A stretch of 64,000 nt of DNA from Candidatus Saccharimonadota bacterium (GCA_017404935.1 JAFRBI010000006.1:32379-96378); one strand, 5' to 3'. Positions 12,276-61,875 are shown, numbered from the stretch's first letter. Made by a program: numbers and translations. The notes: a model not told the origin generated them from the sequence alone.

Positions 12276-13493
12276 CTATTTTTTGTAATATCTAGACAAA
12301 AATTGTTTTTTATACTCGGCGAAAGTGCCACCCAGAATTGATTCACGAATTTTGTCGGTGGTTTTTACTACAAAATGTTCGTTGTGAATGGAAGCGAGGA
12401 CTTTGGCGGTAATTTCGTCGGTTTTGAAAAGATGATGTAGGTAGGCTCTGTTGTAATTTTTACAACACTCACAATCACATTCTGGCATCAGGGGAGTAAA
12501 GTCATTTCTGAATTTGGCATTTTTGATATTAATACGGCCATCCAGAGTGTAAAGTGAGCCGTTTCTGGCCATGCGGGTAGGGGCAACGCAGTCAAAAGTA
12601 TCACAACCGTATTCGGCACCGATGAATAAGTCAATTGGCTCTTGTCCCATGCCAAGCAAATGTCTTGGCTTTTCTTCTGGCAAAATACTATTGACCGTCT
12701 TTAGCATTTCATCCATGCCGTCAGCCACAAAAACACCACCGATGCCAAAGCCATCCACATCCTTACTTGCGCAATACTTGGCAGATTCGGCGCGAAGGTC
12801 GTTGAAAGTGCCGCCTTGCACAACAGCATACAAATACTGTTCCATATGATGATGACAACATTCCTTTCTCGGGCCGCGTCCGTCCGGCCCATCGCCATGG
12901 GCGGACGGCGCTTCTCCTCGCGCTGCCGCGCTCCGGAATCCCTCGAAAGAAACGTCACCATCATCTCTCAAGCGTTGGTGTTCTGCTACGCAGCGGTCTA
13001 GCCAACGGTGGGTGCGGTGCATGGCGTCCTCCATATCTTGGCGGTTTTCAGATTTTGCAAGCTGGTCAAACGCCATGTGAATATCAGCACCAATAGCCCA
13101 TTGGGCTCTCATGGATGATTCGGGCGTCATTTCTAGTTTGTCACCATTGATATGAGATTTGAATTTGGCGCCATTCTCATCTATTTTAACATCTGGCAGA
13201 GAAAAAATCTGAAAACCGCCAGAATCGGTGAAGGTCGGGCCATGCCAAGAAGAAAACTCGGCCAAGCCGCCAGCCTCTTTGATTAAATCTGCGCCTGGCG
13301 CCAAGATTAGGTGATAGGTATTAGCAAGAATAGCTTGGGAGCCTAAATCTCGCATCTGCCTCATAGTGAGAGCTTTGACGGTAGCTCTGGTAGCAGCCCC
13401 AACAAAGCACGGAGTTTTGATGTCGCCGTGCGGTGTATGAATTACGCCGGCGCGCATGAGACCATTTTTCTTTTCTAGATCAAATTTCAACAT
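12276..13493 (-). CDS. tgt: tRNA-guanine transglycosylase with internal hairpin-element insertion
   Basis: [36 protein letters not shown] zinc site. Confidence 0.97.
12846..12964 (+). repeat. GC-rich hairpin element (core 12869-12944) with inverted arms, in frame in tgt
   Basis: tcgggccgcgtccgtccggcccatcgccatgggcggacgg...ggaatccctc; arms atgatgatgac..ttcctttc / gaaagaaacgtcaccatcat. Confidence 0.9.
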
Positions 13494-14560
13494 ATTAGCA
13501 TTGAATCTCCATAACTTAGAAAATTATATTCTGCTTTTATTGCATGGTCGTAGGCATTTTTTAGATTATCCCATCCGGCGAAGGCAGAAGCAAGCATGAG
13601 GACGGTAGATTTTGGCGCATGAAAATTAGTTAAAAGAGCATCGACGATTTTGAATTCGAAACCTGGATAAATAAAAATGTCGTCTTCGCCTTCGGGTTTG
13701 CCAGTCCTGGCGTAATATTCGAGTGTTCTAGCCACCGTGGTGCCAAGAGCTACCACCCGTTTGGCATTATTGATGGCCTCTATGGTGTCCTCTGGGATGT
13801 GATACCACTCGGAATGCATTTTGTGATCTTCGATATTGTCAGTTCTGATTGGCAAGAATGTACCGAGCCCGACGTGGAGGGTGAGATATTTAATAATCAC
13901 GCCTTTATTTTTTAATTTTTCCAATAATTCTTCGGTCATATTGAGGGAAGCAGTAGGAGCGGCGGCGGAGCCCATTTCACGAGCCCATACAGTTTGGTAA
14001 CGCTTTTTGTCGTCTTCGGTAGCGTCGCGATGAAGATATGGTGGGAGTGGTACAGTGCCATATTTTTCGGCAAGTTCGGGAAGGGGAGTATCGGACTCTA
14101 CTTCTGCGATGCCATTGCCTAGTAGGTGCTTAACAGTAATGCTTCTTCGACGCGCTTGCGCCGGCCCATCGTTATGGGCGGCGCTGCGCTCTTCTTGCTC
14201 CCGTTGTCGCAAGACGGTCTCAGAAGCATCACTATTAAGCACTTCCAATATATCCCCCTCATGGAGTTTGCCGCGATACATCACGTGCTGAGGCTCATCG
14301 CCGTGGCGCTCCAACACTACCAATTCGCGTTTGCGACCGTCTGGGAGTGAACAAAAAATTCTAGATTGCATCACGCGAGTGTCGTTCAAAATCAAAACAT
14401 CTCCGGGGTTTAGAAAATCTGCTAAGTCCCGATAATAACTATCTTTAATTTCGCCATTTTTGCGGTTCAAAACCAAAAGCCTAGTGGTGCCACGAACTTT
14501 TGGTGGAAACTTGGCAATTCTATCTTCTGGAAGATCATATGAAAAATCAGAAACTAGCAT
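13487..14560 (-). CDS. queA: S-adenosylmethionine:tRNA ribosyltransferase-isomerase with internal insertion
   Basis: [49 protein letters not shown]. Confidence 0.97.
14126..14242 (+). repeat. GC-rich hairpin element (core 14147-14221) with 21-bp inverted arms, in frame in queA
   Basis: Core contains cccatcgttatggg; arms gtgcttaacagtaatgcttct / agaagcatcactattaagcac (19/21 complementary). Confidence 0.88.
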
Positions 14561-15116
14561 TTTTTAAATCTTTCTCAATTTGTTTTTGGTAGCGTTCTTC
14601 TTCGGAAAATATACAGCCACAATATTTTTGCATATAAAGTCCCATCTCACGTGCCTTATTTTGGCCTTCGCGAAACCCAACACGAAAATCGCGATACAAA
14701 AATTCCACACCCGAAAGTTTTGATAGTTCTTCACATACTTCTTTGAGTTCTTCGTGTTTTTGATATGGTGAAACTAAAAGGGTAGTAGTAAAAGCATCAT
14801 AGCCGTGTTTGGCGGCATATTTTACAGTTTCGCCAAGGCGTTTTTTGTAACAATAATTCACGCAGCGATTAGAAATATCCGAAACTACATTTTTGCAAAA
14901 TTCGTCCAAACCATAATCTTCAATAAAGACCGACTCGGCGCCAACTTTTTTGCAATAATCTTTGAGGCAGTCACGGCGAGTCTTATATTCTATATATGGA
15001 TGGATGTTTGGGTTGTACCAAAAAATTGTTGGCTCAATGCCTTCAGAGCGTAATGAGTCAATACAATAAACGCTGCAGGGAGCGCAGCAGGTATGCATGA
15101 GAACTTTTTTTGCCAT
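14547..15116 (-). CDS. queH: epoxyqueuosine reductase QueH
   Basis: HTCCAPCS, YNPNIHP, RC..CY, FTTTLLVSPYQ, QKYCGC. Confidence 0.93.
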   Translation of the reverse strand: MAKKVLMHTCCAPCSVYCIDSLRSEGIEPTIFWYNPNIHPYIEYKTRRDCLKDYCKKVGAESVFIEDYGLDEFCKNVVSDISNRCVNYCYKKRLGETVKYAAKHGYDAFTTTLLVSPYQKHEELKEVCEELSKLSGVEFLYRDFRVGFREGQNKAREMGLYMQKYCGCIFSEEERYQKQIEKDLKNASF

Positions 15117-60407: not shown

Positions 60408-60408
60408 A

Positions 60409-61875
60409 TTGAAGATCATTGGTCTAGACATAGGCACCAAACGTATTGGTGTAGCACGTGCTGATTCTACCACTAGAATCGCAGTTCCATCAGGTTTTAT
60501 TAATGTTGATGGCACCGAATGGACAGAAATCGAAAAACTAGCCAAATTATATAGCACTAATTGGTTCGTGCTGGGGCTGCCGCGTAGTAACGAAGGCAAT
60601 GAAACTCAACAATCACAATATGTGCGAAGTTTTGCCAAAGAGTTACTAAAAAGAATTCCTGATGCAAAAATTAGATTTCAAGATGAATCTTTAACTTCGG
60701 TAGAAGCCGAAGAAAGATTAAAAGCTCGCAAAAGCAATTATGAAAAAGGCGAAATTGATTCGGAAGCCGCCACCATCATTCTGCAAGATTTTCTAGAATC
60801 TTTTAGAGGGGGTTCTGGGACACCGTCTTCTTCAGAGGCACTGTCCTCGCGCCCGTCGTTACGGGGCTCGGACGCTCTTCTTGCTCCCGTTGTCGCAAGA
60901 CGCTCCTCAGAAGAGGTGTCTCAGAACCCATTGCAAGAAATTCAAGAGAATGTTAAAGTAGTAGCAAAGAAAGAAGGTGACAAAATTAAGATGAGTGCGA
61001 GGAAGACAAAGCATAAAATGAAGAAGTGGCCGATTTTTCTGGTGCTTCTTTTGATTGTCGCAGGGTGCGTGGGGGGATTTTTCCTGGTTCAAAAAATTCG
61101 CGAGCATAATGCCGAAGAACGTCGCAAAGAATACGCTAGAATTGAAGCCGAGATGAAAGCCGAAGTTTTTACCTTTACAATCAAGCCGGGTGAAACGATT
61201 TTTGATATTAAAAAACATCTAGTTGAGGTTGGGTACACAGCAGAAGAAGTAGATAAAGCTTTTGCAGCAGAATATAATTTTCCGTTTCTCTCTGGTCGCC
61301 CAGCAGGAGCAACCCTTGAAGGCTACCTTTATGGAGAAACTTACGAATTTTATAAAGGCGTGCCAGTAGAAGATATTATTACTAAATATCTCGAGAAAAT
61401 GGGGGAAGTAATTACTGAAAATAATTTAGAAGCAAGATATGCGGCGCACGGTTTGTCGCTTTATGAAGGAATTACGCTGGCTTCGGTGGTACAAAAAGAG
61501 TCCCCAGCTGGTGAACATTCAAGGGTGGCTCAAGTATTTTTGACAAGACTCGCATACGGAATACCGATGGGAAGCGACGTAACTGTAACTTACGCTCTTG
61601 ATGTAGAAGACCCAGATCGCACCATTTACAGAGATAACCAAGCAGCACTTAAAATTAATTCTTGCTATAATACTCGCCTTCACGCTGGGCTTCCTTGTGG
61701 ACCAATTTCAAACCCTTCGCTAGCCTCGCTTCTGGCTGTAGCTGATCCAGCCGACACTTCTTATCTGTATTTCTTGACAGGGGACGATGGTTTGATGTAT
61801 TATAGTTATACAGAAGCTGAGCATAACCAGAACGCTTACTTACATTGCCAGAACCTCTGTAACATTTCATTATGA
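60409..61875 (+). CDS. ruvX-mltG: fusion of RuvX/YqgF nuclease and endolytic transglycosylase MltG
   Basis: GLDIGTKRIGVA, VLGLP, DESLTS, IDSEAATIILQ; then TM, LEGYLYGETY, ASVVQKE, PCGPISNPS, YLYFL. Confidence 0.9.
   Translation: MKIIGLDIGTKRIGVARADSTTRIAVPSGFINVDGTEWTEIEKLAKLYSTNWFVLGLPRSNEGNETQQSQYVRSFAKELLKRIPDAKIRFQDESLTSVEAEERLKARKSNYEKGEIDSEAATIILQDFLESFRGGSGTPSSSEALSSRPSLRGSDALLAPVVARRSSEEVSQNPLQEIQENVKVVAKKEGDKIKMSARKTKHKMKKWPIFLVLLLIVAGCVGGFFLVQKIREHNAEERRKEYARIEAEMKAEVFTFTIKPGETIFDIKKHLVEVGYTAEEVDKAFAAEYNFPFLSGRPAGATLEGYLYGETYEFYKGVPVEDIITKYLEKMGEVITENNLEARYAAHGLSLYEGITLASVVQKESPAGEHSRVAQVFLTRLAYGIPMGSDVTVTYALDVEDPDRTIYRDNQAALKINSCYNTRLHAGLPCGPISNPSLASLLAVADPADTSYLYFLTGDDGLMYYSYTEAEHNQNAYLHCQNLCNISL
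60810..60929 (+). repeat. GC-rich hairpin element (core 60832-60908) with inverted arms in the RuvX-MltG linker
   Basis: cccgtcgttacggg core; 3' half shared with the queA copy; arms gggttctgggacaccgtcttct / agaagaggtgtctcagaaccc. Confidence 0.88.

Follow-up and report, generated by a model that had tools for sequence, protein, structure and literature searches.

This work concerns a family of GC-rich palindromic elements, nine copies of which lie in a 64-kb stretch of DNA (hereafter, the window, meaning the whole stretch of 64,000 nucleotides) from a rumen Saccharibacteria genome assigned to Candidatus Nanosyncoccus (740 kb in 11 contigs, 98.8% complete). Each copy is composed of a conserved core of 75-78 nt enclosed by two arms that pair with each other and are specific to that copy. 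The window copies are singletons located kilobases apart, eight on the plus strand and one on the minus strand, and six of the nine lie in genes confirmed by Pfam.

Copy 1 (12848-12965, plus strand) is antisense to its host, the tgt gene on the minus strand, whose product was recognized as TGT by Pfam; it comprises a left arm (12848-12868), a 76-nt core (12869-12944; 98.3 bits), and a right arm (12945-12965). The queA gene, also on the minus strand, contains copy 2 (14126-14242, plus strand), in which arms at 14126-14146 and 14222-14242 enclose a 75-nt core of the CTTGC..GCAAG type (14147-14221). Two plus-strand copies are sense insertions. Copy 3 in mnmA (32545-32662) has its left arm at 32545-32565, core at 32566-32641, and right arm at 32642-32662, while copy 4 in alaS (34289-34405) has arms at 34289-34308 and 34387-34405 around a 78-nt core of the GGCCGTAGCC type (34309-34386). 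Three copies are located between genes. Copy 5 (40281-40399, plus strand; arms 40281-40301 and 40378-40399, core 40302-40377) lies 3' of rplA and is followed by a T tract and a -10 box. Copy 6 (42149-42273), 3' of rplL, is the sole reverse copy, with a core at 42173-42250 and plus-strand arms at 42149-42172 and 42251-42273. Copy 7 (49907-50024, plus strand; core 49927-50004) separates the convergent genes recR and that of an AMP-binding ligase; its arms (49907-49926 and 50005-50024) appeared in the repeat search as 26 nt that are 96% complementary. The 5' end of a pseudouridine synthase gene on the minus strand carries copy 8 (56799-56907, plus strand), which has a left arm at 56799-56814, a core at 56815-56890, and a right arm at 56891-56907; the S4 and PseudoU_synth_2 domains of this host begin after the insert according to Pfam. 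Finally, copy 9 (60810-60929, plus strand; arms 60810-60831 and 60910-60929, core 60832-60909) is a sense insertion in the linker of a RuvX-YceG/MltG fusion gene, where Pfam places RuvX at residues 1-130 and YceG at residues 249-476, with the insert in between.

A covariance model trained on 50 family members, the window's own nine among them, returned exactly these nine copies (E from 4e-25 to 4e-16, filters off) and nothing further in the window at E ≤ 1, and a repeat search placed the nine elements into the same families. All nine cores share the motif CCCRT-CGYY-AYGGG. Its R/Y pair is A-T in the tgt and queA copies and in the core at 40302, and G-C in the other six; the tgt copy has a second compensatory pair (ccgTccg/cggAcgg). 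The cores reach 74% GC against about 41% for the genome, and the TC/TC mismatch at their junction is real. The motif, both compensatory pairs, the GC-richness, and the junction mismatch, together with the positions of the nine cores, had been described in an earlier reading of the window (hereafter, the original prediction), and all of them were recovered.

Structure of the Repeat Unit

Every copy that was folded together with its flanks adopts the same architecture, in which an AT-rich outer stem of 16-24 bp, different at every site, leads through a 2x2 TC/TC loop into a short closing stem (GGG/CCC, GAC/GTC, or GGGAC/GTCCC) and from there into a three-way junction. The junction bears a long hairpin with the CCCRT-CGYY-AYGGG tip and a second, short hairpin in the 3' half of the core. 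The whole unit, core and copy-specific outer stem together, measures about 117 nt rather than the approximately 76 nt originally proposed, and the second hairpin is of at least three types (GCGC-TGCC-GCGC; CTTGC...GCAAG; GGCCGTWGCC / GGTCGTRACC) instead of the two 3'-half subfamilies distinguished at that time.

The covariation of the stems was examined in 50 distinct copies, over the outer five pairs, the closing stem, and the long hairpin. Paired cells amounted to 88.8%, in comparison to 67.9% in column shuffles and 36-55% when the partners were slid, and cells with changes on both sides numbered 247 against 88 expected, a value that none of 500 shuffles reached. In the long hairpin, four positions exchange G-C for C-G in 20-25 of the 50 sequences, while the tip T, C, G .. 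A and the three C-G pairs beneath it are invariant in all of them. A tip that stays constant while the stems covary suggests recognition of the folded strand by a protein. The pairs are almost exclusively Watson-Crick ones, and the two strands are unequal: under DNA parameters, 166 of 184 copies fold more stably as the complementary strand, with tandem G.A in place of the TC/TC bubble, and the arm mismatches on the written strand are A.C in 108 cases versus G.T in 41 (183 copies from the genome and loci L054-L247).

Two observations concern hairpins placed within hairpins. Long variants on contig C3, outside the window (16348-16464, 60100-60183, and 106773-106893), carry a 33-36-nt module, TTGCCTTCGGCAATTCGCGTCCCAAGGGGCGAGCG, in the tip of the long hairpin, which suggests that the tips of hairpins can take up further, small hairpin modules. 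The tatD gene of the window holds, at 28937-29108, a second, unrelated nested hairpin of about 170 nt (-49.6 kcal/mol; z = -7.5 versus shuffles), whose long outer arms resemble host sequence and which is devoid of the CCCRTCGYYAYGGG tip; in three other species, tatD carries cores of the family described here.

Distribution of the Family

A profile search of the 740-kb assembly revealed 26 solid and 3 weak copies, corresponding to about 0.4% of the genome and a density of approximately one copy per 25 kb. Relatives were fetched both by the Tgt protein and by the core pattern, which resulted in a pooled set of 188 copies from three independent samples (the genome, 74 tgt/queA loci, and 120 loci from the pattern scan). 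The scan with the core pattern gave at least 120 stretches and, among the matches listed, all came from Candidatus Saccharibacteria of the ruminant gut except ten chance matches, which sit in genomes of 45-77% GC. Many of these relatives are labelled Candidatus Nanosyncoccus from the ruminant gut, and the family is carried by more than 100 related ruminant-gut species. In viral contigs, the pattern gave a single match, a chance one in a contig of 69% GC, and a phage-borne element was therefore rejected. Rfam contains no family that matches the window at the gathering score or two of the copies at E ≤ 1, and in the searchable literature we found no publication that joins Saccharibacteria or Patescibacteria with palindromic elements, in agreement with the original view that such an element is not recognized from Patescibacteria.

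An assembly artefact, which the original prediction had named as a possible refutation, can be ruled out, since more than 100 genomes assembled independently in several projects contain the same cores. Moreover, the junctions are covered without differences by Logan contigs of independent public runs. In such runs, the k-mer depth over the cores is about 100-fold in excess. Elements that break assemblies and inflate k-mer depth to this extent are of practical importance for the binning and annotation of genomes of the candidate phyla radiation.

Insertion in Genes: DNA or RNA

Saccharibacteria genomes are among the smallest and most streamlined bacterial ones, yet about 0.4% of the genome studied here is a hairpin repeat that resides inside essential enzymes, namely Tgt, QueA, MnmA, and AlaRS, as well as LeuRS, LepA, TruB, and PolA in other contigs or species. 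Among the 188 pooled copies, 132 (70%) lie in open frames that extend 30 codons or more to either side. The frame is preserved in all coding copies, translation of which adds about 32-35 residues, and the inserted peptides differ between copies. The cores are free of stop codons in four to six of the six frames in 44 of 50 cases, the genome mode being two. Coding copies are sense in 61 cases and antisense in 71.

The insertions are also concentrated, as 99 coding copies fall in only 41 gene families, led by mnmA with seven, leuS, lepA, and truB with six each, and polA, queA, tsaD, and others with four (gene names besides mnmA and queA were read from flanking peptides without Pfam confirmation); mnmA is occupied in at least six other species. 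Loops of 30-35 residues at recurrent positions constitute a natural map of insertion-tolerant sites in conserved proteins.

It could be considered that the elements are structured RNAs within mRNAs, such as a ribozyme, an intron-like intervening sequence, or a regulatory element, and a three-way junction with covariation and strong predicted folds is what such an RNA would present. Nevertheless, sense and antisense copies are about equally frequent, the preserved frame and the scarcity of stop codons would be needless if the RNA were removed, the pairs are almost only Watson-Crick, and Rfam gave no match at E ≤ 1 for two copies, which together make this explanation extremely improbable. Because coding copies occur alike in both senses and are translatable, whereas an RNA that acts in mRNA or is removed would be expected to favor one strand and would have no need of translatability, the element is best placed at the level of DNA. 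The evidence points to a conserved core that acts as DNA, in connection with replication, rather than as RNA.

Occupied and Empty Sites

Comparison of occupied sites with their empty counterparts in related species revealed the origin of the outer stem. One outer arm is host sequence, either conserved codons or one half of a terminator, while the other is its inverted copy of about 15-21 nt, so that an insertion amounts, on balance, to the core and a single arm. The copy can be taken from either flank. Five sites were examined for this.

In alaS, 11 species have an empty site of constant length, and the window gene is 96-99 nt longer, with a core of 78 nt. The KNNK codons of these 11 empty orthologues align with the left arm, whose reverse complement forms the right arm. 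The alaS element is also absent from strains in runs X5 and X7. The queA site is a turn between the conserved strands GDxL.. and ..IxIxK(I/L)LGNG. The interval amounts to 180 nt in the window; most occupied species have 174-219 nt, and most of the 34 empty ones 84-93 nt. In loci L060, L079, and L099, the core-adjacent arm begins at the invariant GD codons and the opposite arm is the inverted copy, while in the window and some other species, the host arm is the conserved IxIKH strand and the opposite arm the inverted copy; the left arm of the window copy carries the conserved SITVKH/LLGNG codons. The tgt linker has 65 amino acids in the window versus 28-35 in empty species, a difference that fits the core with one arm and neither the core alone nor the core with two arms.

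The left arm of copy 7 is host sequence, because the C-terminal domain of RecR (RecR_C) is complete up to a stop codon inside this arm; the last 13 residues of the neighboring ligase, past its final domain, derive from the inverted copy. At the two ribosomal protein genes, relatives with 95-98% amino-acid-identical proteins have plain terminator hairpins 3' of rplA and rplL, and the window cores sit at the hairpin tip. For rplA, the relatives with the plain hairpin have a 95% identical RplA, and the site holds no core in 39 other loci. The arm of copy 6 at 42251-42273 is homologous to the 3' half of the relatives' terminator, with its T tract and -10 box. On the far side of the rplL copy, 12 extra nucleotides, TTATAACACAAG, are an inverted copy of the flank that holds the -10 box of the next gene.

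Three other accounts of the arms were rejected. The host arm is not always the 5' one, as it was found on both sides. The two arms do not both arrive with the core, since arms hold invariant host codons and the net length is that of the core and one arm. Finally, empty coding sites do not offer ready-made palindromes, the best stem scoring 5.5 on average versus 4.85 after codon shuffling; a stem score of at least 8 was found at 3 of 34 empty queA sites, and of these only L063 has the stem at the turn itself.

As a separate observation, three queA loci classified as empty (L063, L097, and L100) contain imperfect palindromes of 10-11 bp at the insertion point, e.g., ACAAGGTTTTT-gttaat-AAAAATCTTGT, those of L097 and L100 being weaker (score 7). 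They may be arm-only footprints that persist after loss of the core.

Target Preference, Turnover, and Spread

The bases that precede the core are biased. A pyrimidine (C or T) occupies position -1 in 96% of copies and T occupies position -3 in 69%, G accounts for 2-9%, and TTC occurs in 35%. The six bases 5' of the core are pyrimidine-rich, and an A-rich stretch lies further out. The target is thus a preference and not a fixed word. Both core ends read ..TC (YYTC), and the inner ends of the arms are weakly conserved as YTTTC/GAAAR.

Presence and absence are patchy at orthologous sites of related species, and the same few loops and terminator tips are reoccupied from one species to another by cores of different types. 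A hairpin insert of some kind is present at the tgt linker and at the queA turn in about half of the species, and these inserts represent several unrelated core families. Orthologous arms can hold different core types; the queA arms of the window are also found in five species, some of which have another core. At the tgt linker (about position 3540-3660 of each locus; L057, L070, L071, L090, L056, L062, L082, L098, and L076), at least three further families of hairpin inserts were observed, i.e., one with GGGTGACGG...CCGGCAGGACCC, one with GAGGACCATAAGCCTGG...GTGTCC, and an AT-rich one, each with its own site-specific arms.

The cores themselves are more conserved than their surroundings: their identity reaches 98.6% between species in which the flanking genes match at about 75%. 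In 11 of 24 cases, the nearest core is found in the same genome, in a pool of which the genome's own copies make up only 13%. In strains about 97% identical to the window genome, the alaS and mnmA sites have a different local sequence and the element is absent; at mnmA, such strains carry 62 other letters where the window has 146. Across the alaS site, identity falls from 97.6% to 92%, as expected for recombination tracts. Saccharibacteria are naturally transformable (PMC10633639).

Orientation Relative to Replication

The orientation of the elements follows the sign of the local GC skew in 26 of 29 genome copies, in 32 of 33 at the tgt/queA loci, and in 105 of 129 in the third sample. Co-orientation holds for 150 of 176 copies in regions with an absolute skew of 0.03 or more (p = 2e-22). 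Four species have the queA-tgt locus inverted relative to the skew, and the elements are inverted there too. The orientation is independent of the gene strand. The written strand is the G-rich strand and would be the lagging-strand template, the direction of replication being deduced from the skew only. Co-oriented and anti-oriented copies are equal in stability and in similarity to the family; a survival bias, by which anti-oriented copies would be weaker, was tested in this way and is not favored.

A polarity of this kind raises the question of whether the elements serve the host as DNA signals that are polar to replication, such as sites of loading, priming, or processing on single-stranded DNA, kept by selection and not selfish. 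An orientation skew of about 85% lies within the range of known polar motifs, and both the invariant tip and the conservation of cores beyond that of their flanks would be in line with a function. It is difficult to reconcile such a role with a density of only about one copy per 25 kb, with the interruption of essential genes, and with a distribution so patchy that half of the sister species lack any given copy; in addition, several genomes of the genus gave no blastn match at all to a query holding tgt and one core. We consider a host signal highly unlikely.

Search for a Mobilizing Enzyme

The original prediction had pointed to repetitive extragenic palindromic (REP) elements and their doublets (REPINs), which are moved by REP-associated tyrosine transposases (RAYTs) of the HUH class. 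When the K-12 RayT of E. coli was used as a phmmer query against all stop-to-stop open reading frames (ORFs) of the genome and 194 loci (filters off, E ≤ 10), the best hit had E 0.44 and 9 bits. A motif search for ORFs with both HUH and YxxNP gave only an exonuclease and a spurious frame. The HUH motif (H-hydrophobic-H) occurs in 29 of 681 ORFs; of the eight small ones, Pfam assigned seven to a phosphomannomutase-like hydrolase, a formyltransferase, HIT, a glycosyltransferase, a SurA-like protein, SIS, and a YafQ toxin, and the eighth matched no Pfam family. An all-against-all comparison revealed no transposase-like multi-copy paralogues, the only groups being a surface-protein family, ABC-type families, six PemK/MazF toxins, and an rpsM duplicate at contig ends. 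Within the limited sensitivity of these searches (phmmer, motifs, and Pfam for the small ORFs with HUH), a link to RAYT enzymes was not borne out in this genome.

In a REP- or REPIN-like scheme, the hairpins would be substrates of a RAYT or of an IS200/IS605-type single-tyrosine (Y1) HUH enzyme, which would cut folded single strands and rejoin them at the fork and whose gene was overlooked, lost from the genome, or too diverged. Strand bias relative to replication is a property of IS608, and the bias observed here would fit such enzymes, as would the pyrimidine motif preferred 5' of the element, the YYTC at both core ends, and the conserved tip on covarying stems. Furthermore, in two subfamilies the long hairpin is immediately preceded on its 5' side by GCGTC, reminiscent of REPs with a CGTC tag (PMC3733652). 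This scheme is nonetheless unlikely, as it has to be reconciled with the lack of a credible RayT homologue and of any ORF with HUH and YxxNP besides the two dismissed above, with only 29 HUH ORFs, the small ones among which were assigned by Pfam to housekeeping or toxin families in seven of eight cases, with an intragenic position of 70% of copies and no REPIN doublets, and with host-derived outer stems, which are a feature of no known REP system.

If no transposase is found, the elements might need none. Such an enzyme-free structural parasite, propagated through replication errors alone, would rely on template switching between hairpins, which copies cores to other hairpin tips or microhomologies, on fold-back, which builds the arms, and on transformation with recombination, which spreads the alleles. 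The use of either flank as the source of arms, the growth of the stem at the rplL terminator, and the presence of different core types on orthologous arms all speak for it, as do the several unrelated core families with host-like arms at the tgt site and the further nested hairpin of tatD; the inner arm ends (YTTTC/GAAAR) could serve as the microhomology. On the other hand, an invariant tip on covarying stems and core identities of 82-99% across species are what would be expected from recognition by a protein. De novo inverted duplication of 20 nt by template switching would also need a return to the template by a route that is not evident. We regard a purely enzyme-free course as unlikely.

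The paralogues mentioned above deserve a brief description in their own right. The six PemK/MazF-like toxins have 128-168 amino acids, are up to 52% identical (PF02452 for the two that were tested), and are encoded in the window at 11705-12181 (minus strand) and on five other contigs; one of their genes directly adjoins tgt. The only large gene family of the genome has 18 members, large and presumably surface proteins that are up to 92% identical, encoded in the window at 10075-11484, 35741-37213, and 52743-54680 and at 15 places elsewhere. The rpsM fragment is near-identical at two contig ends (C4:180-476 and C8:73201-73572), probably as an assembly overlap rather than a duplication. Besides these, the ORF at 58608-60407 contains a long low-complexity tract rich in K, E, and D (window 58903-59122) with a GAAGA-type periodicity of 9-12 nt.

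Interpretation

Taken together, we propose that the nine features belong to a selfish, non-autonomous family of palindromic DNA repeats in Candidatus Nanosyncoccus that acts as DNA and not as RNA. We assign a probability of about 0.6 to this reading as a whole, and considerably less to the single steps by which it might operate. The mobile, non-autonomous palindromic element envisaged in the original prediction fits a family that is multi-copy, restricted to one lineage, patchy at orthologous sites, and in frame within genes, and it is from this distribution that we infer mobility. The most unusual properties of the family, namely outer arms derived from the host and an orientation tied to replication, were not part of that prediction.

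Regarding the mechanism, we envisage that cores, folded as single strands, would be copied or moved at the replication fork and would land beside pyrimidine runs (YTTTC) or at the tips of existing hairpins, e.g., those of terminators. The stem would then grow outward through fold-back (template-switch) copying of one flank. Three observations led us to treat stem growth as a step of its own: arms can be copied from either flank, the rplL stem shows growth past an older one, and arms of the same kind accompany unrelated core families. Occupied alleles could subsequently spread between strains and species by natural transformation and homologous recombination. As a tentative extension, the family might represent a distinct class of mobile DNA, in which the hairpin tip is recognized, the stem is made from the target by inverted duplication, and both events take place on single strands of the fork through a non-HUH factor or template switching alone, with a small set of loops and terminator tips reused across the genus.

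Several points weigh against the selfish repeat as proposed. No movement was observed directly. No transposase was found in a genome that is 98.8% complete, where the search consisted of motifs, one query, and Pfam on 8 of 29 HUH ORFs, with no profile run over every ORF. No pair of filled and empty sites with near-identical flanks was found, and the empty alaS and mnmA sites of the strains of about 97% identity differ locally. The host-derived arm stands on either side, so that the duplication has no fixed polarity, which a single-step insertion model fails to explain. High conservation of cores across species could reflect a host function. Finally, the orientation bias could result from unequal survival rather than oriented insertion, and the better folding of the opposite strand, together with the excess of A.C over G.T mismatches in the arms, would fit either reading, although co-oriented and anti-oriented copies are equally stable. 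On the survival reading, copies whose better-folding strand lies on the lagging-strand template would be lost more often, an effect described for plasmids in E. coli.

Should inverted target duplication and replication polarity prove true for the selfish repeat, DNA would here be moved or copied in a manner unlike both cut-and-paste transposable elements of the miniature inverted-repeat kind (MITEs) and the REP/RAYT system. The family could then expose how folded single strands are handled at the replication fork of Saccharibacteria.

Comparison with Known Systems

Classical MITEs have conserved terminal inverted repeats and direct target-site duplications. In the present family, the arms are unrelated between copies and it is the center that is conserved, while the duplication is inverted and the net insert consists of the core and one arm.

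Elements of the IS200/IS605 group and their non-autonomous derivatives have neither terminal inverted repeats nor direct target duplications; they possess hairpin-based ends, a short preferred motif, and an orientation bias toward the lagging-strand template. The same set of features is seen here, with an orientation bias of 150 of 176 in which the direction is deduced from skew only. The fixed tetra- or pentanucleotide target of that group is replaced by a mere preference (C or T at -1 in 96%, TTC in 35%), no TnpA (Y1) was found by the searches made for RAYT, and the inverted duplication of the flank has no known counterpart in IS200/IS605.

Insertion of IS1397-type elements into REP loops and the folding of integron attC sites are other cases in which a hairpin tip or a folded form is the site of action, served by an own transposase or integrase and by conserved recombination boxes. 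The rplA and rplL intergenic copies at terminator tips resemble them in their location; no conserved recombination boxes were found here.

Ecological analogues can be seen in the mobile GC clusters, double-hairpin elements, and repetitive hairpin elements of mitochondria, which are GC-rich hairpin repeats in very AT-rich compact genomes, occupy coding or rRNA sites, and have no known transposase (PMC4478555, PMC2800124). They differ from the present family in their hosts and sequences. To our knowledge, host-derived inverted arms and a replication-linked orientation are not known from these mitochondrial elements.

REP elements, bacterial interspersed mosaic elements (BIMEs), and REPINs share with the present family the GC-rich imperfect palindrome, the many copies, the short conserved tag beside a covarying hairpin, and a presumed activity as folded single strands. 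REPs are extragenic sequences of 20-40 nt, often arranged as inverted doublets and accompanied by a RAYT gene (PMC3733652), whereas the units described here are singletons of about 117 nt, intragenic in 70% of cases, with host-derived outer stems and without a RAYT detected in the genome. The head motif of REPs is GTAG or CGTC, and the GCGTC that precedes the long hairpin in two subfamilies is reminiscent of it, but it belongs to a unit of different length and location.

With regard to the effect on genes, a close parallel is found in the Rickettsia palindromic elements (RPEs). In both cases, small palindromic repeats in a reduced, AT-rich genome are inserted in frame into unrelated housekeeping genes, where they add a peptide loop, and also occur between genes. 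RPE-1 to RPE-10 are about 150 bp long and conserved over their full length, and each family encodes a conserved peptide in a fixed orientation and frame (PMC10969869). Compared with this description, only the 75-78-nt tip is conserved in the present family, the stem is derived from the host, and the orientation follows replication; in place of a conserved peptide and a fixed orientation, the peptides differ and sense copies (61) stand beside antisense ones (71). The family thus looks like an RPE-like selfish palindromic element of unusual build, in which a conserved tip is combined with host-derived ends.

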